Part shown: piece by piece, positions 8,569 through 57,481 of the stretch
How positions within the stretch are numbered: the stretch's first letter is position 1
How the letters are laid out: each line of letters starts with the position of its first letter
Position numbers and translations under genes: made by a program
Notes under the pieces: model-generated
What the model was told of the DNA's origin: nothing
Seen by the model: the letters and a program-made list of their open reading frames with translations, nothing else
The model's database searches: none
Assembly: GCA_018304025.1 (NCBI GenBank)
Contig: JAGVXA010000006.1
Location: 8,077-72,076 of the forward strand
Length of the DNA: 64,000 bases
Source: Candidatus Pacearchaeota archaeon
GTDB taxonomy: Archaea; Nanobdellota; Nanobdellia; Pacearchaeales; GW2011-AR1
Direction: 5' to 3'

Positions 8569-8569
8569 A

Positions 8570-20689: not shown

Positions 20690-20713
20690 GAGTATTCCTA
20701 GCCAAAAAATCTG

Positions 20714-20801: not shown

Positions 20802-21045
20802 GATAGCCATTTACTTTTCAAAGCCACCATCACTTCATATTTCACTGCGATACAAAAGCAGTTACTTAATGTCGTGATTGAATTTTATATTCTTGCAAAG
20901 CAAGAACGTAAGCAAACGACGTGTAGCCCAGCCATTTAATTGACTAGGAATCTTTAAAGAACGGAGAGGTATTTATTTCTTCCTATTCAAAGTTCGCATT
21001 TTTGCCAAGAAGTTTTAAGAAGGCAATTATTTCAGCGACGTGCCT

Positions 21046-32532: not shown

Positions 32533-32769
32533 ATGGAAGAACAAAGAATCGTAATAAATCAAAAAGTTATGGCAGGCAAGCCAATTATCAGGGGAACACG
32601 AATTCCTGTTGATTTAATAGTCAGACTTATGGCGCAAGGTTCAACAATTAACGAGATAATCGAAGATTATCCCAATCTAACTAAAGAAGATATCAAAGCA
32701 GCATTATTATACGCGGCACTAATAGCAAAAGGGGAAACAATATTTCCAATAAAAGCGGAAGATGATTAG
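32533..32769 (+). CDS. DUF433-family antitoxin-like protein
   Basis: MAGKPIIRGTRIPVDLIVRLMAQG...DYPNLTKEDIKAAL is the DUF433 signature. Confidence 0.75.
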   Translation: MEEQRIVINQKVMAGKPIIRGTRIPVDLIVRLMAQGSTINEIIEDYPNLTKEDIKAALLYAALIAKGETIFPIKAEDD

Positions 32770-33115
32770 GTTCTTAGTCGATGAATGCTCCGGCAGCAAA
32801 GTTTTTGAAATGCTTAAAGAAAAAGGATATGACGCAAAATTTGTTTCCGAAATAATGTCTGGCGCATCTGACGAAGAAGTTCTTGAATTTGCAGAGAAAG
32901 AAAATAGAATTCTTATCACAAACGACAAAGATTTCGGAGAATTAATATTCAGGTTAAGAATGCCCTCGTCTGGTGTTATTCTGTTTAGATTAAACCTCGA
33001 CACATCAAAACAAAAAATAAAATATTTATCTTATTTGCTCGAAAACTTTCAAGATAAACTGCAGGAAAATTTTGTTGTGATTACCGAAGGACAGGTTAGA
33101 ATAAGGAAGATTTGA
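32762..33115 (+). CDS. DUF5615/PIN-like (Mut7-C-like) putative toxin
   Basis: FLVDECSG...ILITNDKDFGEL; 8-nt overlap with the DUF433 gene, the usual pairing. Confidence 0.7.
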   Translation: MIRFLVDECSGSKVFEMLKEKGYDAKFVSEIMSGASDEEVLEFAEKENRILITNDKDFGELIFRLRMPSSGVILFRLNLDTSKQKIKYLSYLLENFQDKLQENFVVITEGQVRIRKI

Positions 33116-36100: not shown

Positions 36101-36733
36101 ATGATAAAACGATTTGATTTTTATAGACGTTTTTATATTCTCAATTCCATGCTCAAGGATTTTCTTTTTAAAATTCTCAGCAAAATCTTTTTTTAATTTA
36201 GCATAAAAATTCTTTTGAGAAAGATTATTTAAAATAGATTCCTTGATTTTTAAATTACTCTCGTATTTAATCGTGCGCGGGCATACAACCCTTTCTCCAA
36301 TTTTAATATCTTTCGCTTCAACATCTTCAAAACCTTCTCTAAAAACAATATATTTATGTTCGGGAGTCGTCGTTATCTCAAAACCATTTCGCAAGGTTAT
36401 CTTCAGCGTTTCTCCCCCGCAAAGTCTCCACGCAAATTGAATTGGCTTCTTTTCTATTTTTCTTGTTTCCTTATTAAGCGAGAATATACTTAATTCTTTT
36501 TTAGGAGTAAAAATTACATACTCTTCATTTTCTTCTTTTACTATTCCAGATTTAGCAACTTCTTCAAATATCTCTCGGGCAGTTCTCATACGCCCATCAG
36601 CCAAGAGCACTCTTGAGTTTTCACTAATGCATTTGCCGTGGTGAATGTGCGCGCTCGTCGCTACGTTTCTGATGTTCTTCTGATTGGTTGTCAATCGTTT
36701 AATCTTCGCTAAACTTGTTTCTTTTTCTGCCAT
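33116..36733 (-). CDS. fusA: translation elongation factor aEF-2 containing an intein
   Basis: Exteins NVATSAHIHHGK | TAFTDNLLAAAG, DTPGHVDF, NKVDR, and domains II-V through ...HRGPAQIYPA...GWSNDLRSATEGR. 1205 aa, against about 730 expected without the intein. Confidence 0.95.
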   Translation of the reverse strand: MAEKETSLAKIKRLTTNQKNIRNVATSAHIHHGKCISENSRVLLADGRMRTAREIFEEVAKSGIVKEENEEYVIFTPKKELSIFSLNKETRKIEKKPIQFAWRLCGGETLKITLRNGFEITTTPEHKYIVFREGFEDVEAKDIKIGERVVCPRTIKYESNLKIKESILNNLSQKNFYAKLKKDFAENFKKKILEHGIENIKTSIKIKSFYHGIWQNRYPLKELLEISGLFNIGAEEMYDMIDVIYFRTGKQRGQNSLFMKLPQNFEEFFYLAGLFLGDGSGKKFIAGKEQLADKVQEICKNLGFETKRVDNRDRTPEIHTNLTLIEMFNSLFDYPLKQKSHNIKISDFVLANENVYVAQLLRGYFDTDGCVEKSRRAVTISSVSKKMIDDLHLLLLRFGCVSIKEKDNTLSISGISAINFERNIGFGLKEKIEKLKILVSKVGGSNVCDTIKVGNQVMLMNKRLKEFASEELAYIEVKKIESGFENVVYDFTVPETHNFIAEGMVIHNTAFTDNLLAAAGMMASKNAGDLEEGMTTWQHSDEQERLMTVDAANVSMGHSYQGQEYLINLIDTPGHVDFSGNVTRAMRAIDGTFVLVCASEGIMPQTETVLKQALRERVKPILFINKVDRLIKELKLTPEQMQERFMKIINDFNNLIMRIAEQEYKEKWKVNVMDGSVAFGSARDNWALSMPFMKKKNVSFKDIYKIYDETLGEAERKKWAQENAPLNEVILDMAVKHLPNPVDAQKYRIPKIWRGDIESKFGKDLLHCDESGEVGFVITNIVIDPRSGKEICAGRLYSGTLKNGMEVYSNTVKKKYRIQQVLVYNGIKPEQLEEVPAGNVLAITGLNVDVGDTITEEPQTAFEEIRHLFQPVITKSIEATRSADLPKLIEVLRKVGKEDPSIKIEINEETGENLISGMGELHLEIIEGRIKSEKGLEVKTGQPIVVYRETVAGPSKEVEVRTPNGHNIFFFTIEPLEPEVFKAIENGDLPEERLKKRAEITWKKLSELGVSNEEARQYREIYKGNVFEDRTRGLVLLSEVIDSVMDGWEMVVDAGPLAKEPLMNTKFVLHDAKLHVDHMHRGPAQIYPAVRQGMFETMKNGGASIFEPIQTHRIEVPMEFMGAATQLVGSKRGVILDAQQEGSDTIIVAKIPVAEMIGWSNDLRSATEGRGVSSLADQEFQRLPRELQINVVRKIRDRKGLAENQ
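35210..36631 (-). mobile_element. intein (474 aa) with LAGLIDADG homing endonuclease, inserted in the EF-2 P-loop (GHxxHGK/T)
   Basis: Starts CISENSRVLLADG (block A), TTTPEHKY (block B, TxxH), LAGLFLGDGSG and LRGYFDTDGCV (endonuclease), and ends VYDFTVPETHNFIAEGMVIHN followed by the +1 Thr. Confidence 0.85.
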
Positions 36734-38980: not shown

Positions 38981-39397
38981 TTACACAATTTTCAAATCCA
39001 AATTAAAATAATCCTGGACAATTTTCTTCAGTTCTTCAAATCGTCTCCGATTGCGTCCGATTAAAGACGCTTTGTTCTGGTTGCTTCCGGCAGTTATTAT
39101 AATTTCCCCGTTCTTAATCTCTAAAGATTTGAACCTAACCGGCGCTACAATGCTTCCGATAAATCTTTGTGCATTTTCAATTCCATTTGCTTCTTCAACA
39201 ATCTTGACTCTTTTTCCAGTCCCATTCTGAATTTTTTGGATATTAACTGCGCCAGGTCCAATTGCCCTCGATACTTGCCCCCTGTCAACCGCAAAAAAAA
39301 CCGTGTTGTTATGAACAAAGCACTTTCGCGTTTTAACTCCTGTTACTTTATCCAGGAGGTTAATGTAGCGAATTGTTTGCATGCTTATTACTGCCAT
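38981..39397 (-). CDS. nusA: archaeal NusA-like KH-domain transcription factor
   Basis: 138 aa with two KH-like segments (AIGPGAVNIQKIQNGTGKRV, LIGRNRRRFEELKKIV), in the canonical position upstream of rps12. Confidence 0.8.
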   Translation of the reverse strand: MAVISMQTIRYINLLDKVTGVKTRKCFVHNNTVFFAVDRGQVSRAIGPGAVNIQKIQNGTGKRVKIVEEANGIENAQRFIGSIVAPVRFKSLEIKNGEIIITAGSNQNKASLIGRNRRRFEELKKIVQDYFNLDLKIV

Positions 39398-39446: not shown

Positions 39447-40076
39447 TCAACGCTTGCGGGATTCAACATCGTCAATTTCTTTTTTTAATACGCCCATGAT
39501 GTTCTCCGGAAAAAAACAAGTCCAGTGGCTTCCACGGATAAATTTCGGCGCGCTGAATCTTCTGTCTTCTTTTGCAGCAGTTTCAATTTTTTTAATATCT
39601 CCTCTGGCCCAGAACAAAACGTCTAATTTATCAGTTGAAAAATATGTTCGGATTTCACCGACATTGTCCGGAATATCAACAGGACTGTATGACGTATAAA
39701 ATGGGTCAAACAAGCAGATTCTATCAATAAAAATTCCTTCCTCTTCGCATTTTTTAGCAGTCAGCCTGACTTGATCACAGCCAGCACTCAATGCAAAAAG
39801 CAGGATTGGTTTTTTTTCGTTATACGCTTTCCGAATATTTGGCATGCTTCTCTCCCAGTAATGCACGCTTTCAACATCTATTCCAGCGCCTGTTTCTTTT
39901 GCCAGGTCATTTGCAATTTTATGCACGCTGCCGCTGCACCATCCGTCAATTCCCTCAGCATAAACATTAATTCCAGAAGATTCGTGGCTAATCCGCGGTC
40001 TTGCGCACCCGCCAATCGGCATTAATGAAACTAAACCTGCAAGCGCGCACGAAACTGCGCAATATTTTCTGTCCAT
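39447..40076 (-). CDS. lipobox alpha/beta-hydrolase-like protein (paralogue of 56885..57481)
   Basis: Start at MDRKYCAV (40076). Lipobox-like LMPIGGC; LLFALSAGC nucleophile-elbow-like motif. Collinear similarity to the 198-aa ORF (VYAEGIDGW/VFVAGVDGF, ICLFDPF/LMVFYDP). Confidence 0.6.
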   Translation of the reverse strand: MDRKYCAVSCALAGLVSLMPIGGCARPRISHESSGINVYAEGIDGWCSGSVHKIANDLAKETGAGIDVESVHYWERSMPNIRKAYNEKKPILLFALSAGCDQVRLTAKKCEEEGIFIDRICLFDPFYTSYSPVDIPDNVGEIRTYFSTDKLDVLFWARGDIKKIETAAKEDRRFSAPKFIRGSHWTCFFPENIMGVLKKEIDDVESRKR

Positions 40077-40145
40077 CTTCTTAAAAAAAACTAATTCCTT
40101 ATAAACATATATAGAATAGACTATCTCGAATTCCGAATAACAATC

Positions 40146-40450
40146 TTTAAATAAATCCTCCCCCTCAATAAAAAATGAAGAGGCTGACATTTGTTTTTAT
40201 TCTAATCTTATTTGTATTAATCTTTTCCTACTCAAAACCAAATGTAACAGGACAAGCCACAGAAACTCAATTTTGCGACGGTAAAATATTTCATTATGCA
40301 ACAGGGCAGTTCACCTGCACAGAAGGATGCGACGCAGAAAAAGGCTGCTGCGGAGCAATGAATGAACCCTGCTGTACAGAAGAAAATTCAGAACATGAAG
40401 AATGCAAATCAGGATTAACTTGTGTTAATTACTTTTGCAAAGATATAACC
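40146..40450 (+). repeat. duplicated promoter + signal peptide + Cys-rich N-terminal module, copy A
   Basis: tttaaataaatc...aaaaATGAAGAGGCTGACATTT... through ...ggattaacttgtgttaattacttttgcaaagatataacc; collinear with 44904..45214. Confidence 0.8.
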
Positions 40451-42676
40451 AAAGACTCAAAATCCTCAAGAAAAACAAGCGGACTAAGAGGATGCAACCC
40501 AGGCTCATTTACAAAAGTCTGCGGGCAAAACATCGGTTTAATTTCAGGACATCAATATCAATGCCAAAGAAATCCAGACAGCACAACTTACTGGCAAGAT
40601 ATCGGAGAAAGCGAAGCTTGTAAAGTTTCAACAATCACTCCTTCTCAACCGTCTTCGGGCGCAGGCTGCGCAAGTCCTGCAAACGAAATCCCTCAGCAAA
40701 ATAACCAGCAATGTTCTTACACAAATCTAGATTATTTTTTAATAGACGCATATTACCAAAATTATTACATTCCCCTAGCCCTAAGAAAAAACAACAATCA
40801 AATCTCTTTCTCTTACGAAGGAAATTCTGCAATAGAATTGCCAGCCACAGCAAACTTAGTTGCAAATGTAAATCAAGAGTTAGTAAAATCAGACAATCAA
40901 AATTGCTTCTACTACAAAGTCCATTATCACCAAGACGCAATAGCTAAAAACTATTTTGTCGACGGCAAAAAAGACGCGTCAGGAAAATGCACCTATACTC
41001 TTCCGGACACAAGCAATAAGAATTTTCCGCCGCAGACAGAAATATGCCAAGATGATCCAGGCAACGCATTAAGATGCGCTTCTAATTACAACGAATTTAT
41101 TTGCAATTTCTTCTCCCCATCTGTTGACCAAGATTTCGGAGTCTTAGTAGAAAATTGCGGAAATTCTTATAACGTCGCTGTAGACAACAATCAAGAAATT
41201 TATGAAGAATGCCTCGCAAGACATCCGCAAGAAAACGTCTGCCAGGAAAAATGCAAAGAATTTGGAAAACAAAAGATTGCAGTAAAATATCCAAACATAG
41301 CTCAAACAAATCTCGAACAAATTCAAGGCGAATGTATGAAAAGTTTGGGTATTACCAAGAAAGAACCTCTTGGCGAATTTGACAATAGAGGATTCACATT
41401 AAAAGAAATTCCAACCGCAGAACAAAAAGAAATCTATTCACAAATTCCTAAAGAATTTTGGCTCAAAGACGAACAATGGGGATGGTACGACGCAGGGCTT
41501 TTTGGAGGAGTAAGTCAAACTTACACTTACAAAGACAACAAAGCGTGGTTTAGTATAAGAGAATATGACGCAAAAGATGAAGCAGATAATTATTGCGACA
41601 AAAATTCAAAAGAAGATTACGATTGCGTTTGCAGCGCGCCGCTAAAATGTCCTGATAATGACAAAGACGGCTCTCCAAATAGCAAGGGTGTTCTCGTAGC
41701 ATGCACCTCTCTTATGGGCGAGGAGAGCACAGGAGAGGTCATCTTTGATTGTGATGATAACAACGAAAAAGTTAGCCCAAAAAATAAAGAGTCGTATATT
41801 CCTGGCGCAAAAGAAGATGTGTGCGCAGACAAATTAGATAATGACTGTGATGGCGCAAAAGATTGCGAAGAAAACGATTGTCAAGAATCTTCTAACTGCT
41901 TTTGTAATTTATTTTCTTTCACTCCGCCAGACTCTTCAAAGAAAATTCAATTTGCGAGATACGAAGGACTTTCTTACGAAATTGAAAAATCTGTTAGTGT
42001 CGCGCTTGCGGGGAAATTCGGAGCAAAGGCGCATTCAAGTATTTCGCGCGGAATAATCATTCAAGACAAGGTTCCAAAACCAGAAGAACCTGTTGAACAA
42101 ATTAGAATTTCGGTTGATTACATTGGAAGTGTGAGCGACAAGAACTTTGTGCCCGACGGCTCAAAGCCGGCAAGAAATGTTTTAGATGAAAAGCTTTCGG
42201 GTTTTGTAAGCCGGACAGATATCGATGAAATTTTAAATATTATTGAAAAAAATTTCAAAGCAGAAAACGAAATTATTATTTTTACATATAGTGACAAGAT
42301 GATTTTCCAGATAAAAAATAAAAAGTCTGGCAATTTTGTAGCGGCCAAAACATACAGCACAGGAAGCTCCTCTTCTGATAAGAACTTGAACATAAAAAAT
42401 ATCAAAGATTACCTGAAAAATAAGCCGGTGCTGGATTCGCAGACAAAGACCAATACGCTGCTTACTTCGTTAACCACCAAGGACCGCGTAGATAACAAAG
42501 GAGTTAAGCAGTCCATCGGGTTTGATTTCTTAAAAGTCAGTATCTTAGGGAGAGATTATTCAACCTACGAAGACATAAAAAAGAATGTCTATGAAGAATA
42601 TATTTTGAAGATATTTGAAGACGTAGACGGAAAGTTGGAAAGAGCCGCGCAAAAATACAACTCAAAATGTAAATAG
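40175..42676 (+). CDS. large secreted Cys-rich protein with a MopE-like DNDCDG metal-binding-type motif
   Basis: Signal peptide MKRLTFVFILILFVLIFSYS. DCDDNNEKVSP...EDVCADKLDNDCDGAKDCEENDC resembles the Cys-rich DxDCDG repeat. Confidence 0.7.
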   Translation: MKRLTFVFILILFVLIFSYSKPNVTGQATETQFCDGKIFHYATGQFTCTEGCDAEKGCCGAMNEPCCTEENSEHEECKSGLTCVNYFCKDITKDSKSSRKTSGLRGCNPGSFTKVCGQNIGLISGHQYQCQRNPDSTTYWQDIGESEACKVSTITPSQPSSGAGCASPANEIPQQNNQQCSYTNLDYFLIDAYYQNYYIPLALRKNNNQISFSYEGNSAIELPATANLVANVNQELVKSDNQNCFYYKVHYHQDAIAKNYFVDGKKDASGKCTYTLPDTSNKNFPPQTEICQDDPGNALRCASNYNEFICNFFSPSVDQDFGVLVENCGNSYNVAVDNNQEIYEECLARHPQENVCQEKCKEFGKQKIAVKYPNIAQTNLEQIQGECMKSLGITKKEPLGEFDNRGFTLKEIPTAEQKEIYSQIPKEFWLKDEQWGWYDAGLFGGVSQTYTYKDNKAWFSIREYDAKDEADNYCDKNSKEDYDCVCSAPLKCPDNDKDGSPNSKGVLVACTSLMGEESTGEVIFDCDDNNEKVSPKNKESYIPGAKEDVCADKLDNDCDGAKDCEENDCQESSNCFCNLFSFTPPDSSKKIQFARYEGLSYEIEKSVSVALAGKFGAKAHSSISRGIIIQDKVPKPEEPVEQIRISVDYIGSVSDKNFVPDGSKPARNVLDEKLSGFVSRTDIDEILNIIEKNFKAENEIIIFTYSDKMIFQIKNKKSGNFVAAKTYSTGSSSSDKNLNIKNIKDYLKNKPVLDSQTKTNTLLTSLTTKDRVDNKGVKQSIGFDFLKVSILGRDYSTYEDIKKNVYEEYILKIFEDVDGKLERAAQKYNSKCK

Positions 42677-42678
42677 TT

Positions 42679-43044
42679 TTACTCAGCCGCATTTAACTCG
42701 TTTTTTTCTGAATCAATCTCATAATTTCTTACAAATCTCTTTTTACCTTTTTTATCAACAATCCACAAGCCATAAATTCCTCTTGGAAGTCCTTCAGGGA
42801 GATAGCCAGAACGATGATTTCCTTCAGATTTTTCTTTTTCAGAAAATAGCTCTATTCTGTTTCCGTCTGAATTTTGTAAAAACGCCCCTTCTGCTTTGTA
42901 AGTGCGATAAATTGCATTTGGCCCAATTTGTTTTATCGAGGTCATATCAGCGTCGCTTATCTCGCTAATCGTCGGGCGAATGCATCCGGCAAAAGCTAAA
43001 AGAGAAGTCAATGCAGATGTTGCAAGTGTTCTCGTGTTTTTCAT
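42679..43044 (-). CDS. lipobox protein, unknown function
   Basis: MKNTRTLATSALTSLLAFAGC (lipobox LAFAGC). Confidence 0.55.
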   Translation of the reverse strand: MKNTRTLATSALTSLLAFAGCIRPTISEISDADMTSIKQIGPNAIYRTYKAEGAFLQNSDGNRIELFSEKEKSEGNHRSGYLPEGLPRGIYGLWIVDKKGKKRFVRNYEIDSEKNELNAAE

Positions 43045-43137
43045 GAGATTAATGCACTTACAAACTATTTAAACCTTCCGTTTGTAACTACTATTAGATT
43101 ACACAAAAATATAAAAACTTTCAAATCAAATAATAAA

Positions 43138-43875
43138 ATGCTTTCCCCAATAATTTTCAAAATTGGTTCAATCCAAGTCTCTTATTATGTTTTAGTTTAC
43201 ATCGCCGGTTTCATTGCAACTCTCTTTCTCCTTCTCCATTATAAAAAAGAATTAAAATTAAAACCAGAGCAATGCTACAATTTAACTTTCTATCTTCTCG
43301 TTGGTGTAACACTCTGCGCAAGAATTTTCCATATATTTTTCTGGGGACTGGACTACTATCTAAAAAATCCGATAAAAATGATTTATATTTGGCAGGGCGG
43401 CTTGAGTTTTCACGGCGGACTAATAGGCGCAATTCTCGTCGTATTCTTCTTCTCAAAAATTGACAAAATAAATTTCTTTAAATTAGCAGACCTTTTGTCT
43501 CTCCCAGCAGTTCTCGCCCACGCGTTTCAAAGAATCTCAAATTTAATTAATCAGGAAATCGTCGGAACAATTACCTCTTCAAAATTCTGCATGTATTTTG
43601 ATTATTTCGACGGATGCCGTCATCCTGTCCAAATTTACGCTTCAATAGGTAATTTTCTCCTCTTCTTCTTTTTGCTTTTCCTCTACTTCAAAAAACCATC
43701 TCGCAAACTAGGCTTAATTTTCTGGCTCATGATTTTTCTCACAGGCATCGGCAGATTTTTATTGGATTTCATCAGGGAAGACGCAGTTTATCTTGGATTA
43801 AAATCCGGGCAATGGCTCTCGATTCCAATGATAATTATTGGAGCTTATGTTCTGATAAAATATTATAAGAAATAA
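43138..43875 (+). CDS. lgt: prolipoprotein diacylglyceryl transferase (bacterial-type Lgt)
   Basis: IWQGGLSFHGGLIGAIL (Lgt signature), FQRISNLINQEIVG (GRxGNFxNxE), RHPVQIY, GRFLLDFIRED, about 7 TM segments. Confidence 0.85.
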   Translation: MLSPIIFKIGSIQVSYYVLVYIAGFIATLFLLLHYKKELKLKPEQCYNLTFYLLVGVTLCARIFHIFFWGLDYYLKNPIKMIYIWQGGLSFHGGLIGAILVVFFFSKIDKINFFKLADLLSLPAVLAHAFQRISNLINQEIVGTITSSKFCMYFDYFDGCRHPVQIYASIGNFLLFFFLLFLYFKKPSRKLGLIFWLMIFLTGIGRFLLDFIREDAVYLGLKSGQWLSIPMIIIGAYVLIKYYKK

Positions 43876-43933
43876 TCATTTCTTCTTAGAACTCTTCCCC
43901 CTATTAATCTAACCCGCCAAATCCAAGAAACCT

Positions 43934-44818
43934 CTAAAAATTTATTTCATCAGCAATTTCTAAAATTCTCTTTCTTTTCTTCTTTAACTTTTCAGGCGCA
44001 TCCAAGAAATTTTCATCAGTAACAATGCTCTCCCCAGTCTTTTCTTCCAATTCTTTTCTCGCATTCCCTGCAACCTCCCCGCCCTGCCGCGCAGCAGTTT
44101 TATTTTCTTCCATTCCTTCAGCATCTTTTACTTTCGCGATTCTTGTTGTTGCAGCTTCTCCCAGCATCGTAAATATAAGTTCAAGGTCATCCATATGGTC
44201 TCTCAAATTTTCTCGTTTTAATTTTTTAAGCTTCTTGTATTCTTCCACAGTTTTTCCAAAAGTCGCCTTGCTTATTTCATTAGTCAAAATTGCAAATTCT
44301 ATCTCTTCTTTCACTCCCCGATTTTTCCATTCATCTGTGAGCTCTTGTCTTATTGCTATCCCTCTCAATCTTTTTTCAATCCAATTTTTAAAATATCCTT
44401 TCAATTCATACAATTTTTTCATTCGTTCTTGTGCTAATTCAGGGTTTTCAATTTCCTGAACTCTCTCATAACCAACCTTTGCAAGCCATCTTTTAAACGG
44501 CTCTGCTTTTTTCGAGGGAATAGACTGAATTATCCTTAAAATTAATTCTGTGTCTGCGCAGTCAGTTTCATATTCTTTCCCGTCTCCTGATTTTAATTTC
44601 AGTTGTACGATTTTATCGTACAACTCAAAACCCTCTTCTTTTAATTTTATTTTTAAATCAGACCAATATCTTCGAGGAATAGAACTATCTGTTAAAACTT
44701 CTATAATGTCTACAACAGAAAAAAACCATTTATCATCAACAAGTTTTCTCCTTATAGATTTTCCATTAAAAATAGCGATATGCGTTTCACCTTCCTCCTT
44801 CTCTGTTTCTTCAGTCAT
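43934..44818 (-). CDS. Bro-N domain (phage antirepressor/DinD-like) DNA-binding protein
   Basis: IAIFNGKSIRRKLVDDKWFFSVVDIIEVLTDS...PRRYWSDLK...KAEPFKRWLAKVGYERV are typical Bro-N blocks. ATG at 44818. Confidence 0.7.
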   Translation of the reverse strand: MTEETEKEEGETHIAIFNGKSIRRKLVDDKWFFSVVDIIEVLTDSSIPRRYWSDLKIKLKEEGFELYDKIVQLKLKSGDGKEYETDCADTELILRIIQSIPSKKAEPFKRWLAKVGYERVQEIENPELAQERMKKLYELKGYFKNWIEKRLRGIAIRQELTDEWKNRGVKEEIEFAILTNEISKATFGKTVEEYKKLKKLKRENLRDHMDDLELIFTMLGEAATTRIAKVKDAEGMEENKTAARQGGEVAGNARKELEEKTGESIVTDENFLDAPEKLKKKRKRILEIADEINF

Positions 44819-44903
44819 TATTATCAAAACCAATACAAGTTTTTAATATTTGTCTTTTACATTTTGTTATGTTAAAAAAATAAGATCTAAACGCATCCAA
44901 ATA

Positions 44904-45214
44904 TTTAAATAAATCATCCCCTTCAATAAAAAATGAAGAGGCTGACATTTATTTTAATTCTAATCTTATTTGCATTAATCTTCTCCTACTCAAAACCAAC
45001 CATCACAGCTCAGGCCACAGAAGGAAATTATTACTGCGACGAAAATAATATCTTTTATTTTCCAGGCGGACAATTTCCTTGCTCAGAAGGCTGCGACAAA
45101 ATAAAAGACTGTTGTGGGGCGTTAGATGAAGATTGTTGCACAGCAGAAAATTCCGACGACGCAGAATGCAAAGAAGGATTAACTTGTGTTAATTACTTTT
45201 GCAAAGATATAACC
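44904..45214 (+). repeat. duplicated promoter + signal peptide + Cys-rich N-terminal module, copy B
   Basis: Collinear with 40146..40450; the last 39 nt are identical. Confidence 0.8.
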
Positions 45215-45481
45215 GAAGAAGAAACTCCAAGCGACGAAAAAAGAACAACCAGAACAGCAAGAAAAATAACCCAAGAAAACTGCAGCAATATTATATGTGC
45301 AAACCTCAACGAAGATTCCTGCCTTGAAGGAGATAATGTCTATTGTTGCGACTGGGATTTTGAAAATGAAGTAACTGAGACAATTCCAAAAAAACCCGGC
45401 TGCACTACCCCGGAAGGAAGCATCACAAAAAATATTCCTGTCTGCAAAAATAAACCCGAACCCCTCGTCAAAATATGGTAA
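44933..45481 (+). CDS. small secreted Cys-rich protein (shares its N-terminal module with the 833-aa protein)
   Basis: MKRLTFILILILFALIFSYSKP...CSEGCDKIKDCCGALDEDCCTAENSDDAECKEGLTCVNYFCKDIT. Confidence 0.6.
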   Translation: MKRLTFILILILFALIFSYSKPTITAQATEGNYYCDENNIFYFPGGQFPCSEGCDKIKDCCGALDEDCCTAENSDDAECKEGLTCVNYFCKDITEEETPSDEKRTTRTARKITQENCSNIICANLNEDSCLEGDNVYCCDWDFENEVTETIPKKPGCTTPEGSITKNIPVCKNKPEPLVKIW

Positions 45482-46974
45482 AGAGCAAAATAAAATTAGA
45501 TAAATATTTTTTCTGGATAGCTATAATCTTAATTATCTTCATAGGATTTGCCCTTGTCAAGAGTTCTTTGACTGGAAAAGCGGGATGGGACCACACAGAT
45601 GGAGTTGTCAGAGACGACGAGACGGCAAATGAAAACGGCGATCCAGAGGTAACGATTTATAATCCTCCACGAATATGGTATCCGCCTAAAGCAGCTTCTA
45701 AAAACGGATGCAGGCCGAACCAAGAAAATGAAGTTGTCAGAACACTTTATAATGAAAAATGCGAGCAATGCAAAAAGAATAATCAAAACGAATTTTCTTT
45801 CGTGCAAATATCAATCTCAAACGAAAAATGTGTAGGAGATTGTGTTGATAGCGACGAAAACTTAAGTCCCGAAGAACAACTTAAAACTGCAGGAAGCGCA
45901 AAAACATTCGATAAAGAAATAAAAGATAGTTGTCTTCTTGTCGGAGGAAGCCAGATATACGAAGCTGTTTGTGGCGAAGATAATGAACCAAAAGGTAATA
46001 TAGCTCTCTGCCCTATTGGAACAAGCTGTTTATTAAACAAAGATGGAATCGCATTTTGCGGAACCGAAGAGCAAAAAGCAAAATGCGGCGAAGCGTGTTA
46101 TGAAAGCATAATGTGCCAGAATTATCCAAACTCTCTCTGTATCCACAACAAATGCGAAATCCTTTGCGATTCAAGAAATAATTTGAAAGCAGATTCAACT
46201 AAATGTAATTGCATTGATATTTGCGACGATGAGAATCCCTGCACAGAAGAGAGAAAAGAACAGTTTGGCTGTGTAAACGACCCGGAACCTCTTCACAAAA
46301 AAAACTGTATCGACTTAAAAAATGGAATCTCTGATGGGCTTTGCCTTTTAGGAACTTGTACAAACAAAGGAGAACGCTGCGAACCAAACTGCATTTATCT
46401 AAAAGATACAGACGAGTCTATCAAAAATTTAGTTTCCTGCGCAAAAAATAAAGTTAATTCAAAAAGCGAGCCCTGCTTTAAAGATTTTGAAATATTTGAA
46501 ATTTGCACAGGGTATTCCGGGCTTGCAAGTTCTTCAACCGGAACAATTATTCTCTGTGAAAATAGTCCGGTTTACCAATACAAAAATACAGCTTCTACTT
46601 TAATCAAGCACGAATTGATTCACATGATAGATTTATGCCGGCAGCAAGGCACTTGTTCTCCGGGATTAGTTACATTCACCCCCTATAAACCAATTTCAAA
46701 ACTTCCTAAATTTGATAGTTGCGCATTTAATAAACTGTCTCTTGAATTTACAGCTTATCTTTGTTCTGGTGAGTGTTCTACAAAAGAATCTTGTTTGAAT
46801 AGAGCACTATATAGCGTCGATTTCGGGTCAGATTTTGAATACGGAAATTATGGATGGAATACTTTCACAGCCGTTGTTTATAATAATTATAATTCTTGGC
46901 TGGATGAATGGTGGGAGCATAACGGACCAGAGTCAGAAGATTACGTCTGCGATAAAATTCTTAGCGGTTGTTAA
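45475..46974 (+). CDS. membrane-anchored Cys-rich protein with C-terminal Atp23/M76-like HExxH metalloprotease domain
   Basis: N-terminal TM FFWIAIILIIFIGFALV. ...IILCENSP...LIKHELIHMIDLCR...CAFNKLSLEFTAYLCSGEC parallels the Atp23 blocks (LC.N, HELxHxxDxxR, ACSEIRA..LSGEC). Confidence 0.65.
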   Translation: MVKSKIKLDKYFFWIAIILIIFIGFALVKSSLTGKAGWDHTDGVVRDDETANENGDPEVTIYNPPRIWYPPKAASKNGCRPNQENEVVRTLYNEKCEQCKKNNQNEFSFVQISISNEKCVGDCVDSDENLSPEEQLKTAGSAKTFDKEIKDSCLLVGGSQIYEAVCGEDNEPKGNIALCPIGTSCLLNKDGIAFCGTEEQKAKCGEACYESIMCQNYPNSLCIHNKCEILCDSRNNLKADSTKCNCIDICDDENPCTEERKEQFGCVNDPEPLHKKNCIDLKNGISDGLCLLGTCTNKGERCEPNCIYLKDTDESIKNLVSCAKNKVNSKSEPCFKDFEIFEICTGYSGLASSSTGTIILCENSPVYQYKNTASTLIKHELIHMIDLCRQQGTCSPGLVTFTPYKPISKLPKFDSCAFNKLSLEFTAYLCSGECSTKESCLNRALYSVDFGSDFEYGNYGWNTFTAVVYNNYNSWLDEWWEHNGPESEDYVCDKILSGC

Positions 46975-46984
46975 AACTCCCAAA

Positions 46985-47317
46985 TTAGTAAATCGGACTA
47001 TAATGAGCTGTCGGATGCTCTTTAAGAATAAAATCGTAAATATTCTTATATTTGTTTTCAAGGCGTATTTGATTTTCCAATTTTCTTGCTTCGTCTAAAC
47101 TTTCAGGATGATATTTTTTTCCGCGGACAGTTACTTCTGTTCTATACCAATAATTACCCTCTTGCTTCCATCTCTCTCCCCTCTCTCTTTCAGAGAACTC
47201 TTGCTTTTCAACAATAATTTGCGGAGGTATACCAATAGAATTATTCGACTGGCATCCTGCACTAGCCAAAGCTATCAATCCTGATACTCCTGCCCTAATT
47301 AATTTTTTTGTTTCCAT
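46985..47317 (-). CDS. lipobox protein
   Basis: METKKLIRAGVSGLIALASAGC; weak similarity to the next ORF. Confidence 0.5.
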   Translation of the reverse strand: METKKLIRAGVSGLIALASAGCQSNNSIGIPPQIIVEKQEFSERERGERWKQEGNYWYRTEVTVRGKKYHPESLDEARKLENQIRLENKYKNIYDFILKEHPTAHYSPIY

Positions 47318-47337
47318 AAAAAATTTCTAACAATCCC

Positions 47338-47634
47338 CTATTTAAACTTTTCTTCCGCCCTCACATTTCCGGAGCGAGATTTATGAAATAATCTTTCCTG
47401 CAATTTTTCTGCTTCTTCAAGACAGTGCATTTCCGTCGGCATATTCATCCTTATCCCGGCAAATTCTGTTTCAAGAATAAAATTACGACGATACTGTCGT
47501 CCGTCTTCTTTTATCCAACCCCTATCAGGCTCATCAGCACAATGCTTCACTATCGTGTTGTCATAAAAACAGCCTGTGCAAGTCAAACCAATTCCAAAAC
47601 CAACCGCCCGCATCGTCAAATAATTTCTTTTCAT
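47338..47634 (-). CDS. lipobox protein
   Basis: MKRNYLTMRAVGFGIGLTCTGC. Confidence 0.5.
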   Translation of the reverse strand: MKRNYLTMRAVGFGIGLTCTGCFYDNTIVKHCADEPDRGWIKEDGRQYRRNFILETEFAGIRMNMPTEMHCLEEAEKLQERLFHKSRSGNVRAEEKFK

Positions 47635-48104
47635 AATTTTCTCTTTTCGTTATCTTGACTCTCATCAGACACTTCAACCAAAAGACCTTTTTCAACCATA
47701 GAATGGAGCAGTTCTTCCATTTCTTCTTCAGGACAAAAAGAATTTCCTTTCGGGAGAATAACATCTTCAATACTAAGAGACGTTTTGCAGGCAACTCTTC
47801 CTTTTCCTGTTTCCAAACCGTTAAACTCTCCCAACCATAATCCAGAAGAACTATCAAATCGAAGTTCATATTTTATTAATTCTTCCCCCCGAGAGTCATA
47901 TTTTTTTGTAAATATCAGTGATGTTTCAGGACGCATATTTCCATCAATAATCGAGGATCCATAAAAATCAACTAACATTCCATTAATATTATCTTCAAAT
48001 GGAGAATTTCCAATACCTTTTCCAAAAAAGAAAAAACCTCCGAAAGAAACCCCGTATTTGTAAGAATCATTTAAGAACCCTGCAATTGAGTATAAATCTG
48101 CCAT
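47631..48104 (-). CDS. hypothetical protein
   Basis: ATG at 48104 (MADLYS...); 4-nt overlap with the downstream lipobox gene. Confidence 0.45.
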   Translation of the reverse strand: MADLYSIAGFLNDSYKYGVSFGGFFFFGKGIGNSPFEDNINGMLVDFYGSSIIDGNMRPETSLIFTKKYDSRGEELIKYELRFDSSSGLWLGEFNGLETGKGRVACKTSLSIEDVILPKGNSFCPEEEMEELLHSMVEKGLLVEVSDESQDNEKRKL

Positions 48105-48219
48105 AAACAAAAATAACAAAAAGAGGTTTAAAATAATTACTATACTCTGAGGAGATTATCAAACTCTTTATTTCTTTTTCTTCTCACTCTTCTGCTCTCT
48201 CGCCAACAACCAAACATTT

Positions 48220-49515
48220 TCAACCAATAAGAATCCATTTCCATACAGGAAGTATTGTTATCTTTTTGCCTTCAATTATTCTTTCTTCTTCCTGCTCCTC
48301 TGTCAAAATCATTCCTTCCCTTAATTTATGTTCTTTCATAGCTTCCATTAATCCATTAATCTCTCTCTTTTCATTGTCTTCGTCTAATTTTTTCGTTACT
48401 TGTACAGCCAAAACAGGTTTATTTTTTCTGACAATTAAAAAATCACATTCATAATTTTTTCTGAAATAATAAACTTGTTCGTTTCTTCTTCTTAGTTCAA
48501 TAAACGCAAGATTCTCTAATAATTTGCCCGAGTCTTCCGAAAACTTAAAACTAACAGAGTTTAATAAACCATTATCAATGCAATATAATTTTTTAATCGA
48601 ACCCAGCTGTTTTGCTAAAGAGTATTCATATTTCAAATTTTGGAAAAATAAATATGCATCTTCGAAATGCGAAAGATGTTCTATAACAGTATTCTTGCTT
48701 ATTTTGAATCCGATTGAATTTAATTTATTTGCAAGTTTGCTGTATGATATTTCTTTTGAAACCGATTCAAAAAGTAAATTCGCAAGAGTTCTAAGCTTGT
48801 TGACGTCTTCTATTTTATATCTTTCAACTATATCTTTGAGAATCATAGATTCATAATAACTTTGTAAAATATTTTCTTTTTGCAAATTTTGGGAAATTAC
48901 TGCCGGAAATCCACCATTAGACACAAACGAAGTAAAGAGCTTTTTTATTTGAGTTTTATCTTTGCTGTATGAAATTGTTTTTATATCGTATTTTATATTC
49001 TCCCAATTAAGTATCTCTCTAAAACTAAGAGGAAAAATCTCGTAATTTAAAACTCTCCCTCGTAATTTGGTGGATATTTCCTTGCTTAATAATTTAGAAC
49101 TTGAGCCAGTTATGACGAGTTGGATATTTTTTCTTGTATCATTAACTGTTCTTACCCACGAATCCCAATTTTTAACTGTTTGAATCTCGTCTAAAAACAA
49201 GTATATTTTTTGTTTCTTATTTATTTGAGACATCTCAAAATAAAATTCTATTAATTTATCTAAATCTTTTGAATCAGCTCCTAAAAGTTTGTTATCTTCA
49301 AAATTAATGTAAAAAACATTTTCTTTCGATATTCCTTTCTCAAATAGCTGATTAATCATCTGAAAACAAAAATAAGTTTTTCCCGCTCTTCTTGGACCGG
49401 TTATCGTTATAACAAAATCTGTATTTTCTGTTATCTTAGTTGACCTTTCCAGAACTTTTGGAATAACAACCTCCTTCCAAAAAATTATTATTTGCCTATA
49501 ATCCATGTTATTCAT
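48220..49515 (-). CDS. AAA-family ATPase with DUF4143-type C-terminal domain
   Basis: Walker A ITGPRRAGKTYF, Walker B YLFLDEIQ, C-terminal ECDFLI (restriction-endonuclease-like fold typical of this family). Confidence 0.8.
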   Translation of the reverse strand: MNNMDYRQIIIFWKEVVIPKVLERSTKITENTDFVITITGPRRAGKTYFCFQMINQLFEKGISKENVFYINFEDNKLLGADSKDLDKLIEFYFEMSQINKKQKIYLFLDEIQTVKNWDSWVRTVNDTRKNIQLVITGSSSKLLSKEISTKLRGRVLNYEIFPLSFREILNWENIKYDIKTISYSKDKTQIKKLFTSFVSNGGFPAVISQNLQKENILQSYYESMILKDIVERYKIEDVNKLRTLANLLFESVSKEISYSKLANKLNSIGFKISKNTVIEHLSHFEDAYLFFQNLKYEYSLAKQLGSIKKLYCIDNGLLNSVSFKFSEDSGKLLENLAFIELRRRNEQVYYFRKNYECDFLIVRKNKPVLAVQVTKKLDEDNEKREINGLMEAMKEHKLREGMILTEEQEEERIIEGKKITILPVWKWILIG

Positions 49516-49602
49516 TGAACAAATCTATTTAAATTTGTATTTTGGATAATACAAATTAGTATATAAATCTTTTCGTTATAAGAATAATTTCAAGAAAAAT
49601 AA

Positions 49603-52600
49603 TCATTTCTTCTTAGAGCTCTTCTCACTCTTAATTTCCCTCGCCAGCGGCCCAGTAACCTCAACCAAAAGTCCAGGCAAACCAGTTCCAACAGGAATCG
49701 CCTGATTCAAAAGAATATTTTCAATAACAGAATTCAATTCATCTTTAGCTCCTTGTATAGTCGCATTAACAAATTGTTTATCCGGCGTTTCGAATGTAGC
49801 TCGGGCTAAAACAGAAGCTTTCTGCGTGATAATTCCCATACGAGTAACTCCCTTAACCATTCCAGTCGAAGTCATCGCGTCAGCAACCAATTTCAAATGT
49901 CTCTCGTCGATATCCATTCCCTGCGTTTCAATAACTTTGTTAATCTCGTTGATAATTGTCTGCCGCGCAGCTTCAATTCCCAAAATCTTCGCAACGTCGT
50001 GAATATCGTTTGAGGTGATTCTGTTAGCGTCAACGCCCTTGACTTCTCTGATTCCTTTCAAATTAGAACCCGAAGCCAAAATAACATACTCAGGTCCTCT
50101 TTTGACAACAACAACCTGCCCCACGCCCTTTACTCCTGAAATCGAAGTCTCTTTCAATTTTTCTTTCAGCTTGTAAATTTCTCTAAACTCCAAGTCAGGA
50201 AGATTGATAGTTATCTTCAAGTCATTGCTCTTAATCTTAAATCCTTTTTCTTCCAGTCTCTCTGCAATTTTCGCAGCCCCCGCGTGCACGCTTTTCAGCG
50301 CTTTGCTGTCCAGCTCGATTTCGATTTTTTTATTGCCAAAATCAATTCCGATTTCAGAAAGAATCTCAATCAATTTAACCTCTTTAATCTTCTCGGCAAT
50401 TATTCTGGAATCTTTTTCGTTATTATTTTCTTTGTCAAGATAAATTTCCATCATCGGCGTTGAAGGTGATTTTCTGGCATCTAAAATTTCAATCAGTCTA
50501 GGCAATCCCAGTGTAATCTGCATCTGTGCAACACCAGCGTGGTGGAATACGTTCAGAACCATCTGCGTCGAAGCTTCCCCGAAAGATTGCGCAGTCACAA
50601 CGCCGGCAGCCTCTCCCGGACAAATCTTGTCATCCTTCAAATGCAGCTTGGAAACATCTTTCCCATCGTCGCCGTAAGCAAACTGGACAATATTTTCAGA
50701 CGCGTCTCGCAGTGTTCCGTCATATTCAACTTTCAAGTCCTGCAGCGCCGAAACCAATCGCCTGTACAAATAACCAGACTTAGGAGTTCGAAGAGCAGTA
50801 TCCATCATCGAGTCTCTTCCTGTAATTGCGCCGAAGAAAAATTCAGTCGGTTTCAGTCCCTGGAAAAACGAGCTCTTGATAAATCCTCTTGACTCAGGTT
50901 TCAAATCTCCTTTTTTGAAGAAAGACAAAGTTCTGTCTTTGTATCCAAAGTTAATTCTCTGGTTCCACAAAGACTGCTGTCCAACGCAGCAGCCCATCTG
51001 TGTAACATTAAGCATATTTCCCGCGCTCTCAGATTTAATCATCTTGATAATATTTCCGTCGGCAGGGAAATTTTCTTTGACAACTTCTCCAACCTCTGTT
51101 CTTACTCCGTTCAAAATTTGCAGTATCTTTGTTTCTCTTGTTTCGTCAGCAGTTTTTCCGGGCATAGCTTCAAGCGAGCCGGATTCAAACTCTTTGATAA
51201 CTTCGTCTGTTTTTTTCTCCGCCTTCTGGATTATCTCCCGCGAAATTTCTTTCAGTCTTTCGGGAACATCCAAATCCCTCAGCGACAAAGTGTATCCCTT
51301 TCTTGACAGATAAATCATTCCTAAATTAAATGCGTTGTTTATGCAGTCAACAGTCACAGCTCTTCCAAACTCTCTGTCAATAATTTTGACCATTTCCCCG
51401 TCTTCAGCGCCGAATGTCTTGCTCCCGATAATCAAGGAAGGAACTTTTATACTGGAGCCCTTCGGCAAAACCTGCGCGAAAATTTCTCCTCCGTCTATTT
51501 CTTTTTTCTTTATGGAATTAATAATATGGGATGAAAACAAAAGCTGGTTCGCGTCGCTGTTGCTGACTTTTTCTTTTCCAAGCAAATAGACTCCTGTAAC
51601 AGCGTCGGCAATTGTTCCAACAAGATTGATATTATTCTTTGAAGAAATAATGTTGTTGTCAATATTCAGCAAAACTTTTGCCTCGGACAGCGCCTCTTCA
51701 TTTTGCGGGCTGTGCAGGTTCATTTCGTCTCCGTCATAGTCGGCGTTGTAAGGCGCAGCTGCTGCAGGATGAAGTCTGAACGTTCTTCCCGGAAGAACTT
51801 TTACAAAATGAGCCATTAATCCCTGCTTGTGCAGTGTAGGGTGTCTGTTAAACAAAACAATGTCCCCATCTCTCAAGTGTCTTTCAATTTTATAGCCCGG
51901 CTCAATCTCCGCAACAATCTCGTCTTTCAAATCCTCGCTGATTCTTTTCTTTCTTCCGTCGCTTCTGATAACATAATTTGCGCCAGGATAATTCGAACCT
52001 CTCTTGACAAGCTCTTTCATAACTTCCAAATTTGTCGTCGTAACAGCTTCTGCTACGGTAATAATCTCGGCAATTTCCAAAGGCACGCCAAGTTCATTAA
52101 TTTTCAAGTAAGGATCAGGAGATACAACAGAACGCGCAGAATAATTAACTCTCTTTCCTGCAAGATTATGTCTTATTCTTCCTTCTTTTCCTTTAATTCT
52201 TTCAGTGATTGTTTTCAAGGGCTGCCCTGAACGATGCCTTGCCGGAGGAATTCTTGTAATATTATTGTCAAAGAAAGTTGTAACGTGGTATTGAAGCAAA
52301 TCCCACAAATCCTCGATGATAACTTCCGGCGCTCCGGCGTTTAAATTTTCCCACAATCTTTGGTTTGCTCTGATGATGTCGCTTAATTTATGAGTCAAGT
52401 CGTCTTCGCTTCTCTCTCCGCTTTCCAAAGTAATGGACGGGCGGACAGTTACAGAAGGAACCAATAACAAAGACATGACAGCCCATTCAGGGCGGGCGCT
52501 CACGCCGTTTATTCCGATTTTTTTCAATTCTTCCGTCGGAATATTGACTAATCTTTCTCTTACTTCAATCGGTCCAAGTCTTCTCTTCTCAATATAAAAA

Positions 52601-56544: not shown

Positions 56545-56596
56545 TATGCGAAGCAATACCTTCTATTGCGAGTATTTTGGTAATCTTTGATTTCCA

Positions 56597-56884: not shown

Positions 56885-57481
56885 TTATTTTTCCTTTCTT
56901 ATTCTTTCAATATCCGACGTCCAATCTTTCTTTAAATCATTCCAATCAACCAATTCAAAGTGATTTCTTGGAGAATCTCTAATTTCAATTTCTCCACGCA
57001 GATTTTTTTTGTTTCCTGCAAAAGGTCCTAATGAAAAATAAGCAACGCATCTGCGCACATTTTCCGGCTTGTACATCGGTTCTGTTTCGGTAAACGTAGG
57101 ATCATAAAATACCATCAAGTCGATTTTAATTCGTTCTTTTGAGCATTGTTCCGCTAGCGAATATGTTCTCTTGCATCCCATGCTGTAAGCTACTAAAGCG
57201 ATTTTTTCTCCACTCTCATGCGCCTTTCTTATCTTATCTATATTTTTTCCTTCTAAATCGACGCTGTTCACGACGACAGTTGCATTGCACTCTTCATGTA
57301 TGTTATGCCCTAATTTGTGAAGGTCGTTTTCTAAAACAGCATCCATAAATCCATCAACACCCGCGACAAAAACCTTTTTATCTCTGTCTTCATTTCTTTG
57401 CAAATAAAGTTCAGGTGACGCACAGCTTCCCAAACTCAAAAAACCAGCCAATGCGCCTCCAGTAATTTTTCTTAATTTCAT
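56885..57481 (-). CDS. lipobox alpha/beta-hydrolase-like protein (paralogue of 39447..40076)
   Basis: MKLRKITGGALAGFLSLGSC lipobox; IALVAYSMGC nucleophile-elbow-like motif. Confidence 0.6.
   Translation of the reverse strand: MKLRKITGGALAGFLSLGSCASPELYLQRNEDRDKKVFVAGVDGFMDAVLENDLHKLGHNIHEECNATVVVNSVDLEGKNIDKIRKAHESGEKIALVAYSMGCKRTYSLAEQCSKERIKIDLMVFYDPTFTETEPMYKPENVRRCVAYFSLGPFAGNKKNLRGEIEIRDSPRNHFELVDWNDLKKDWTSDIERIRKEK

Follow-up and report, generated by a model that had tools for sequence, protein, structure and literature searches.

In a 64-kb stretch of contig JAGVXA010000006.1 from a Pacearchaeota archaeon (this whole stretch is called the window in the following), we describe a gene encoding a prolipoprotein diacylglyceryl transferase (Lgt) of the bacterial type. 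The gene, lgt, lies in an interval of ~10 kb between the genes of an archaeal NusA-like factor (nusA) and of the fused A'/A'' subunits of RNA polymerase (rpoA). Judged by sequence and predicted structure, the archaeal contig encodes a genuine, apparently functional Lgt. We consider it probable that this is the functional, vertically inherited Lgt of a Woesearchaeota/Pacearchaeota-type archaeon of the DPANN group, residing in a plastic cell-surface locus. The most likely function of the enzyme would be the thioether lipidation of proteins which carry a lipobox. Its enzymatic activity, the identity of its substrates, its lipid donor and its promoter are what we infer from these data.

By every criterion of sequence and predicted fold applied, the protein ranks as a full-length canonical member of its family. 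It matches PF01790 with 198.5 bits (cutoff 24.9) over profile positions 1-239 of 240 and the NCBIfam equivalog model TIGR00544 with 154.5 bits (cutoff 118.9), and it aligns by sequence with Escherichia coli Lgt (PDB 5AZB, E=1.6e-30). An AlphaFold2 model built with 25 homologues reached a mean pLDDT of 91.4 and a pTM of 0.86. The model agrees with the fold of 5AZB, which has seven transmembrane segments around a central cavity and is the model's sole fold match in the PDB at E<=0.001 (E=1.1e-12, TMq 0.79). The description of the gene as an unambiguous Lgt homologue in an earlier note, which had been made from the letters of the window, is thereby borne out.

The likeness to the E. coli enzyme (5AZB/5AZC) extends to the HGGL motif, to the signature R-x-x-N-x-x-N-x-E-x-x-G and to the residues Y26, H103, R143, N146, E151, G154, R239 and R246, all of which are present (E. 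coli numbering, based on an E. coli sequence that matches the PDB 5AZB alignment over the aligned parts). Six residues are reported as absolutely required in E. coli Lgt, namely Y26, H103, R143, N146, G154 and R239 (PMC13251419). The window protein keeps all six, in the same order as Y17, H92, R132, N135, G143 and R206, so that the loss of catalytic residues named by the earlier note as a possible objection is not seen. Throughout 124 Lgt sequences of the archaeal clade described below, Y26, H103, G154 and R239 do not vary at all; position 143 has R in 119 of them and K in the other 5, N146 is N in 123, and R246, E151, N149 and D129 are almost invariant. The window enzyme differs from E. coli Lgt in being archaeal, in its length (245 vs 291 amino acids (aa)), in a shorter periplasmic head and in the substitutions Y80->W, G142->Q, E202->A, Y235->T and E243->D. 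The last three affect a buried hydrogen-bond network of which R246 is kept. Compared with a homologue of 84% identity, lgt has a ratio of non-synonymous to synonymous substitutions (dN/dS) of ~0.09 (dN 0.094, dS 1.08); the gene is, by this measure, under purifying selection.

A distance-based (neighbour-joining) tree places the window Lgt in a deep and diverse archaeal clade of the DPANN type. In this tree 58 archaeal or unnamed Lgts split from 74 bacterial Lgts in 200/200 bootstraps, and the mean distance inside the archaeal clade is 0.94 substitutions per site. The clade as a whole comprises more than 100 sequences, and its named members are mostly Woesearchaeota, Pacearchaeota and Nanoarchaeota. 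A recent transfer of lgt into this genome is excluded. The earlier note had proposed such a phylogeny for finding the donor lineage. No donor lineage was identified in the tree with this bacterial sample (n=74), which the peptide search pattern and a limit of 80 loci had skewed mostly to Proteobacteria, Nitrospirota and Desulfobacterota. One clade member, P0072, is labelled 'Thermoproteota archaeon' and shares 39% identity with the window Lgt; it represents either a mis-binned contig or an Lgt outside DPANN.

Archaea are described as being without Lgt both in the paper reporting the discovery of AliA/AliB (Nat Commun 2025, PMC12462473) and in a phylogenomic Lgt survey (mBio 2026, PMC13251419). 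Both drew on RefSeq or arCOG genomes, which are poor in metagenome bins of DPANN, and our literature searches found no paper tying Lgt or signal peptidase II to Woesearchaeota or DPANN. The premise of the earlier note that archaea are reported to lack Lgt thus agrees with the published papers, not with the databases, which already annotate archaeal Lgts. Among the matches listed, 14 are named 'prolipoprotein diacylglyceryl transferase' by NCBI under DPANN-type or generic archaeal organism names, one more is so named under Thermoproteota, and further ones bear a JGI name without an organism.

The window itself (G+C content (GC) ~0.37) is archaeal and is assigned to DPANN because the named closest relatives of its genes are Woesearchaeota, Pacearchaeota, Nanoarchaeota or plain 'archaeon'. 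In addition to rpoA, rpoB and nusA it holds the genes of S12, S7, EF-2 and EF-1alpha. At least 23 independent contigs, assembled from several samples, have the same gene order. In the relative L005 (an 'archaeon' bin, Lgt 55% identical) the interval measures ~0.9 kb, and nusA, lgt on the opposite strand and rpoA are all there is. In L006 (Lgt 59% identical) nusA is followed by a pair of genes for Cys-rich proteins (204 and 499 aa), a minus-strand gene for a 144-aa lipobox protein, lgt and rpoA. The distance from lgt to rpoA is 4 nucleotides (nt) in L005 and 3 nt in L006. Both also have the A'/A'' fusion (1145-1146 aa). Closer relatives (Lgt 84% and 68% identical), present on short contigs, have a small minus-strand lipobox gene directly upstream of lgt, and in more distant DPANN genomes, including archaeon GW2011_AR20, lgt is found at other sites. 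In the GW2011_AR20-type loci L091/L092 a secreted subtilase of 1847 aa with CARDB domains is encoded divergently beside lgt (4378..9921, minus strand), so that the adjoining surface protein is another one than in the lineage of the window.

Because lgt occupies the same slot in L005 and L006, we regard it as a conserved element of the nusA-rpoA slot and not as cargo. The chance that an assembly chimera or bacterial contamination put lgt on an archaeal contig is next to nil. Nothing was found in favour of it, and we rejected it because the same order occurs in the 23 or more contigs, which stem from different samples and assemblers; moreover, the relatives hold lgt between the same archaeal genes, and the closest named homologues, among the matches listed, are nearly all DPANN-type archaeal. 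A chimeric contig at the borders of the interval, which the earlier note had named as grounds for giving up its view, is therefore not at hand.

From the sequence, demonstrable insertion is confined to the 5.7 kb that separate lgt from rpoA (43920..49585, i.e. between the lgt stop at 43875 and the rpoA stop at 49603). This right part of the interval is absent from L005 and L006 and is flanked by direct repeats of its target, the 3' end of rpoA, three copies of which are present. The functional one is at 49586..49668; two decayed ones match the last 45-80 nt of rpoA. The decayed copy beside lgt reads ..LAG*INRGKSSKKK* (asterisks, stop codons), the functional end ..PLAREIKSEKSSKKK*. Local alignment scores are 63 for the copy beside lgt and 36 for the inner copy, compared with a maximum of 28 in ~1470 random windows. 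The ATPase gene sits between the inner copy and the functional end, and its reading frame ends inside the inner copy. In the simplest reading, DNA was inserted twice in succession into the 3' end of rpoA; each time the reading frame was restored and a decayed copy was left behind. The first insertion would have brought the Bro-N gene, the Cys-rich pair of 182 and 499 aa, both small lipobox proteins and the 162-aa open reading frame (ORF), the second one the DUF4143 ATPase alone. We rejected the view that the right part arose by simple tandem duplication, given repeat spacings of 4760 vs 5727 nt and unlike gene contents.

Some integrative elements enter a gene, classically a tRNA gene, at its 3' end and duplicate that end. 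The two blocks (43920..48178 and 48228..49585) resemble them in that each is bounded by a partial copy of the target and the target is intact; they differ in that the target is the protein-coding rpoA, the cargo consists mostly of surface-protein genes and no inserted ORF has an integrase or recombinase domain. Recombination with a related genome may equally have given rise to the blocks and is as likely as a self-mobile element. The Bro-N and DUF4143 proteins had been named correctly in the earlier note. The former matches, besides PF02498, phrog_15286 over its full length (E=2.2e-89) and shows a weak likeness to DinD; the latter has both expected domains. No Pfam (E<=5), PHROG or PDB sequence match was obtained for the 162-aa protein.

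The left part of the interval (39447..43044) would represent lipoprotein genes and genes of Cys-rich exported proteins which were duplicated and turn over fast. The earlier note had counted two Cys-rich secreted proteins in the interval; there are three (833, 182 and 499 aa). The 182-aa one is paralogous to the N-terminal 105 aa of the 833-aa protein (62% identity), and the DNA at 40142-40455 and 44900-45219 is 76-89% identical, so that the promoter and the N-terminal region of the Cys-rich genes are duplicated. The 182/499-aa pair matches the 204/499-aa pair of L006 (E=9e-21 and 7e-9) and has no Pfam (E<=5), PHROG or PDB sequence match. A HELIHMID (HExxH) motif at residues ~385-395, near the C-terminus of the 499-aa protein (45475..46974, plus strand), is suggestive of a zinc metalloprotease domain.

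Taken as a whole, the 10-kb interval would thus be a plastic cell-surface locus around lgt and not a single acquired island. The opposite view, that the entire interval including lgt is a recently acquired island which brought a bacterial lipidation system together with its substrates, is one to which we attach hardly any probability. The length of the interval here as compared with ~0.9 kb in L005, the phage-type Bro-N gene and the very-low-GC ATPase inside it and the direct repeats around its right 5.7 kb would all fit such an event. However, the insertion bounded by repeats does not include lgt, and L005 and L006 (Lgt 55-59% identical) have the gene at the corresponding site, where L006 also holds a Cys-rich pair and a small lipoprotein; hence the site is not empty in relatives. 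The archaeal Lgt clade is deep and apart from the sampled bacteria, and a dS of ~1 to the closest relative shows long residence. Composition (GC, GC3, codon usage and tetranucleotides) revealed no anomaly relative to the window for lgt or for the left or right part of the interval. In composition, 97% of segments of equal length are less typical of the window than lgt, and the tetranucleotide distance of the right part corresponds to the 71st percentile of the background. The earlier note had seen a 10-kb accessory island with an acquired Lgt and its substrates, and had suggested a comparison of composition with the flanks. That comparison yielded no difference; what holds is the presence of Lgt with lipobox neighbours and the insertion of the right 5.7 kb, and what fails is the recent acquisition, in view of synteny, deep clade, dN/dS and composition.

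Features of the nusA-rpoA interval and related genes of the window (a hyphen precedes the lipobox Cys)
Feature	Position	Strand	Remarks
205-aa lipobox protein	533..1150	-	..GFACG-C; outside interval
Archaeal NusA-like factor	38981..39397	-	TIGR01952 E=1.8e-19, 70.4 bits, slightly under 74.35 cutoff; left flank
209-aa lipobox protein	39447..40076	-	MDRKYCAVSCALAGLVSLMPIGG-C (..MPIGG-C); start at internal ATG 40076
Cys-rich exported protein, 833 aa	40175..42676	+	N-terminal hydrophobic anchor, weak MopE-type metal-binding motif
121-aa lipobox protein	42679..43044	-	MKNTRTLATSALTSLLAFAG-C (..LAFAG-C); PROSITE-like lipobox rule; divergent from lgt
Divergent spacer, 93 nt, lgt to 121-aa gene	43045..43137		read from sequence
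lgt, prolipoprotein diacylglyceryl transferase homologue, 245 aa	43138..43875	+	PF01790, TIGR00544, 5azb
Decayed rpoA 3'-end copy	43859..43919	-	direct repeat D3, 61 nt, 79% identical; abuts lgt stop codon
Bro-N/DinD-like phage-type protein, 299 aa	43934..44833	-	PF02498 30 bits; first gene of block
Cys-rich exported pair, 182 aa + 499 aa	44933..46974	+	7-nt overlap
Two small lipobox proteins, 110 aa and 98 aa	46985..47634 (46985, 47338)	-	..LASAG-C; ..LTCTG-C
162-aa protein	47631..48119	-	last gene of putative first inserted block
Second decayed rpoA 3'-end copy	48179..48227	-	repeat D7; reads LLAREQKSEKKKK*
AAA_14/DUF4143 ATPase, 431 aa, GC 0.28	48220..49515	-	PF13173 136.6 bits, PF13635 80.4 bits
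Fused RNA polymerase A'/A'' (rpoA), 1148 aa	49603..53049	-	NF006336 1014 bits, TIGR02389 372 bits; right flank
rpoB	53296..56556	-	
198-aa lipobox alpha/beta-hydrolase	56885..57481	-	..FLSLGS-C; outside interval; paralogue of the 209-aa protein

Candidate substrates of the enzyme are encoded close by. The 121-aa protein, whose gene is divergent from lgt, is most likely its dedicated substrate. Small lipobox genes in the same position and orientation are present in L087/L088 (GVVGC), L090 (AVAGC) and L006 (APVSC), which together with the window makes four lineages; in a fifth, L007, the lipobox gene is convergent and downstream of lgt. These five lineages are related and are not five independent observations. 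The mature parts of the lgt-adjacent lipobox proteins are only 23-27% identical to that of the window (L087 vs L090 ~35%), and all of these proteins have preserved a basic N-terminus, a core without charges and the [G/S]-Cys. A homologue search for the 121-aa protein returned only itself, the protein diverging too rapidly to be caught by the word index. In the spacer, both start codons are preceded, at a distance of about 26 nt, by TATA-like A/T-rich boxes, aaaaatataaaa for lgt and tttaaatag on the minus strand. Their distance, the usual one of an archaeal TATA box, suggests archaeal-type, leaderless transcription.

Six or seven lipobox-type N-termini were recognised among the 62 genes of the window, one of them in the gene that divergently adjoins lgt. 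The four in the interval that the earlier note had listed (42679, 46985, 47338 and 39447) were recovered, the one at 39447 with a reservation: its lipobox (MDRKY..PIGGC) requires a translation start at the internal ATG 40076, as in the call of one assembly and in a cluster of 209-aa proteins. The two listed outside, at 533 and 56885, were likewise seen by our rule, and 14008, also outside, has a weak lipobox-type N-terminus. One relaxed lipobox rule found 6/62 genes in the window compared with 29/1231 in bacterial loci (p=0.005), and lipobox genes make up 4/11 of the interval vs 2/51 of the rest of the window (Fisher p=0.007). By this regular-expression rule a lack of enrichment, which the earlier note would have taken, if genome-wide, as speaking against it, is not observed within the window. 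The lipobox signals have moderately hydrophobic cores rich in Ala and Gly, visibly unlike the Cys-rich proteins, whose N-terminal anchors are very hydrophobic. In an independent survey with SignalP 6.0, lipoproteins were prevalent in DPANN (PMC12462473).

The proteins at 39447 and 56885 are paralogues (E=5e-22) of a small alpha/beta-hydrolase family; all members with complete N-termini retain the lipobox Cys, and the triad Ser97/Asp124/His184 does not vary. An AlphaFold2 model of the 209-aa protein is of moderate confidence (pLDDT 66.8); it predicts an alpha/beta-hydrolase fold, with thioesterase/esterase matches at a TM-score of ~0.5. The mature parts of the small 110-aa and 98-aa lipobox proteins are alike by eye, with no BLASTP match between them at E<0.01, and the small lipobox proteins have no Pfam (E<=5), PHROG or PDB sequence match.

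From these data we propose the following course. The ancestor of the archaeal Lgt clade would have taken lgt from bacteria long ago, and in the lineage of the window the gene would have come to lie between nusA and rpoA, on the opposite strand. Expressed from an archaeal-type promoter, as the A/T-rich TATA-like box in the spacer would suggest, Lgt may recognise exported precursors with [A/G/S]-Cys at the end of the signal peptide and, as in bacteria, may move the glyceryl-lipid of a membrane phospholipid to the Cys thiol after export. Catalysis would depend on the same Arg143/Arg239/His103/Tyr26 machinery as in E. coli Lgt. As substrates we would expect the divergent 121-aa lipoprotein, the two hydrolase lipoproteins (39447 and 56885) and the remaining window proteins with a lipobox.

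Several points weigh against this proposal. Neither Lsp (Peptidase_A8) nor Lnt was found among 60 window proteins scanned with Pfam or in ~200 kb of related archaeal loci, and CN_hydrolase, the domain of Lnt, did not occur among the same 60 proteins. A tblastn search with LspA of E. coli and Bacillus subtilis (no positive control) gave no match in the window or in 1.5 Mb of loci, among them bacterial ones; it is uninformative beyond the window. The glycerol of phosphatidylglycerol (PG), the canonical donor, has a stereochemistry opposite to that of archaeal lipids. No lipid-synthesis gene is located within the 64-kb window, more distant DPANN loci are without a lipobox gene near lgt, and the lipobox calls derive from a regular-expression rule and not from a trained predictor such as SignalP. 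At positions E202, Y235 and E243 none of the 74 bacterial Lgts sampled shares the residues of the window Lgt. The E. coli mutants Y235T and E202A are active only in part, and one study found no complementation with E243A/Q/R (PMC4728403). E243A was non-essential in a delta-lgt delta-lpp background, and Bacteroides Lgt carries Y235I (PMC13251419). Because the E. coli Y235T and E202A enzymes are partly active and Bacteroides has Y235I, the changes in the hydrogen-bond network need not argue for inactivity.

On the same grounds one might take the Lgt homologue for a relic or for a protein with a function other than lipidation, and the lipobox-like N-termini for ordinary signal peptides ending in Cys. 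Lsp and Lnt were not seen in the scans of the window and related loci, the network is changed, and AliA-type enzymes, which are reported in some DPANN (PMC12462473), could act instead. We give this view little credence: a dN/dS of 0.09, required residues that are invariant or almost so in 124 sequences, the conservation of the lipobox Cys across fast-diverging orthologues beside lgt and the enrichment of lipobox genes all contradict it.

Which lipid a functional Lgt of this kind would transfer can be answered in two ways. One, which we hold to be rather unlikely, is that bacterial-type PG is scavenged into the membrane, implying a bacterial host or lipid source. Tyr26 of E. coli Lgt forms a hydrogen bond with the sn-2 ester oxygen of PG (PMC4728403), and in the 124 archaeal-clade Lgts Tyr26 is as invariant as H103 and R239, with R143 conserved in the proportions given above. 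A 192-aa exported protein (7421..7999, plus strand) matches PF07486 (Hydrolase_2) with 46.4 bits (cutoff 27) and shows a weak likeness to SleB. This peptidoglycan hydrolase and the esterase-like hydrolases with a putative lipoprotein anchor fit a contact with bacterial envelopes; the cell-wall hydrolase may hint at contact with bacteria and proves nothing on lipids. The missing archaeal lipid-synthesis gene would fit as well, but 64 kb is too little to show absence of such genes. Moreover, as far as hosts of DPANN archaea are known, they are archaea.

The other answer, to which we give slightly more weight but less than even odds, and which takes up the ether-lipid donors suggested in the earlier note, is an Lgt adapted to archaetidylglycerol which adds a thioether of the diphytanylglyceryl type, like AliA/AliB in Haloferax. 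Clade-wide changes in or beside the donor-glycerol pocket (as defined in PMC4728403) speak for it: E202->A/G (Ala or Gly in 99/124), Y235->I/L/T/V (a variable position with Tyr in only 29/124), E243->D (Asp in 106/124), Y80->W and M100->L, at positions that are invariant or almost so in the 74 sampled bacterial Lgts. That the changes at E202, Y235 and E243 could reflect a different lipid donor is our conjecture. Archaeal lipoproteins carry a diphytanylglyceryl group on Cys+1 according to a work cited in PMC13251419. On the other hand, Y235I of Bacteroides shows that such changes are not confined to archaea, and the skewed taxon sampling of the bacterial set counts against this answer, too.

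AliA/AliB (arCOG02177) of Haloferax volcanii are presumed to make the same product, a thioether lipid on the lipobox Cys, and share two conserved arginines with Lgt; according to their discoverers they are not detectably homologous to it (PMC12462473). The window protein does not appear to be of the AliA/AliB type, and an NCBIfam scan of the unassigned window proteins gave no AliA/AliB (arCOG02177) match, no AliA sequence or model having been searched. That the Woesearchaeota/Pacearchaeota branch of DPANN uses a canonical bacterial-type Lgt instead of, or beside, AliA/AliB has in our estimate an even chance of being correct. A further parallel are the plasmid-borne second copies of lgt in Firmicutes, which are also linked to genes of likely lipoprotein substrates (PMC13251419); the window lgt differs in being archaeal, chromosomal, single-copy in the window and placed, at a conserved site, amid genes of transcription and translation.

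Some other features of the window merit mention. EF-2 (33116..36733, minus strand) has 1205 aa owing to an intein (Intein_splicing and LAGLIDADG_3 in the precomputed Pfam annotation of an identical gene), and EF-2 of L005 is without intein (724 aa). A class II (B12-type) ribonucleotide reductase adjoins a bacterial-type NrdR repressor with Zn_ribbon_NrdR and ATP-cone (58925..62220, minus strand), and a protein with a diadenylate cyclase (DAC) domain (22873..23472, plus strand) suggests that this DPANN archaeon signals by c-di-AMP. Two Laminin_G_3 domains occur in a secreted protein (25639..27522, plus strand), which precedes an ORF (27537..28640, plus strand) with a weak PGF-pre-PGF domain (TIGR04213, 25.5 bits, cutoff 28), a domain linked to archaeosortase-type C-terminal anchoring; GC3 of both is very low, about 0.19-0.20. 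At 32533..33115 (plus strand) a 78-aa ORF overlaps a 117-aa ORF of a DUF5615/Mut7-C/PIN-like nuclease in a toxin-antitoxin-like layout. Finally, a reverse transcriptase (RT) ORF of 293 aa (19964..20845, minus strand, RVT_1) resembles most closely group II intron RTs in NCBIfam and matches retron and Drt RTs more weakly. An RT-16 RNA motif (Rfam RF03019, 90.9 bits vs gathering 50) at 20798..20948 overlaps its start, and two unassigned ORFs (21046..21855 and 21855..22724) adjoin it. The locus 19964..20948 may be an element of the retron, DRT or domesticated-RT type.

The statement that archaea lack Lgt fails for at least one large DPANN radiation, as the window, the relatives syntenic with it and over 100 homologues show. 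In this radiation Lgt appears conserved, selected and linked to lipobox genes, which contradicts a current textbook-level statement. The novelty concerns members of a known family that the literature has not recognised, in an unexpected domain of life; the system as such is not of a new kind, and archaeal lgt genes like these are already named by automatic annotation. If the enzyme had been retuned to sn-glycerol-1-phosphate ether lipids, this would be without precedent among known Lgts, with the clade-wide E202A, Y235x and E243D in the donor-glycerol pocket as its signature. If, instead, the cell membranes contained bacterial PG, this would point to bacterial hosts or lipid sources of the lineage. 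The finding raises the questions of whether an enzyme with the Lgt fold can use archaeal ether lipids, which lipids occur in the membranes of host-dependent DPANN cells, how the signal peptide would be removed if there is no Lsp, and whether Lgt and AliA exclude each other across archaea. As a compact pair, lgt and the neighbouring 121-aa lipoprotein may offer a handle on lipoprotein biogenesis in archaea and on the membrane composition of DPANN.

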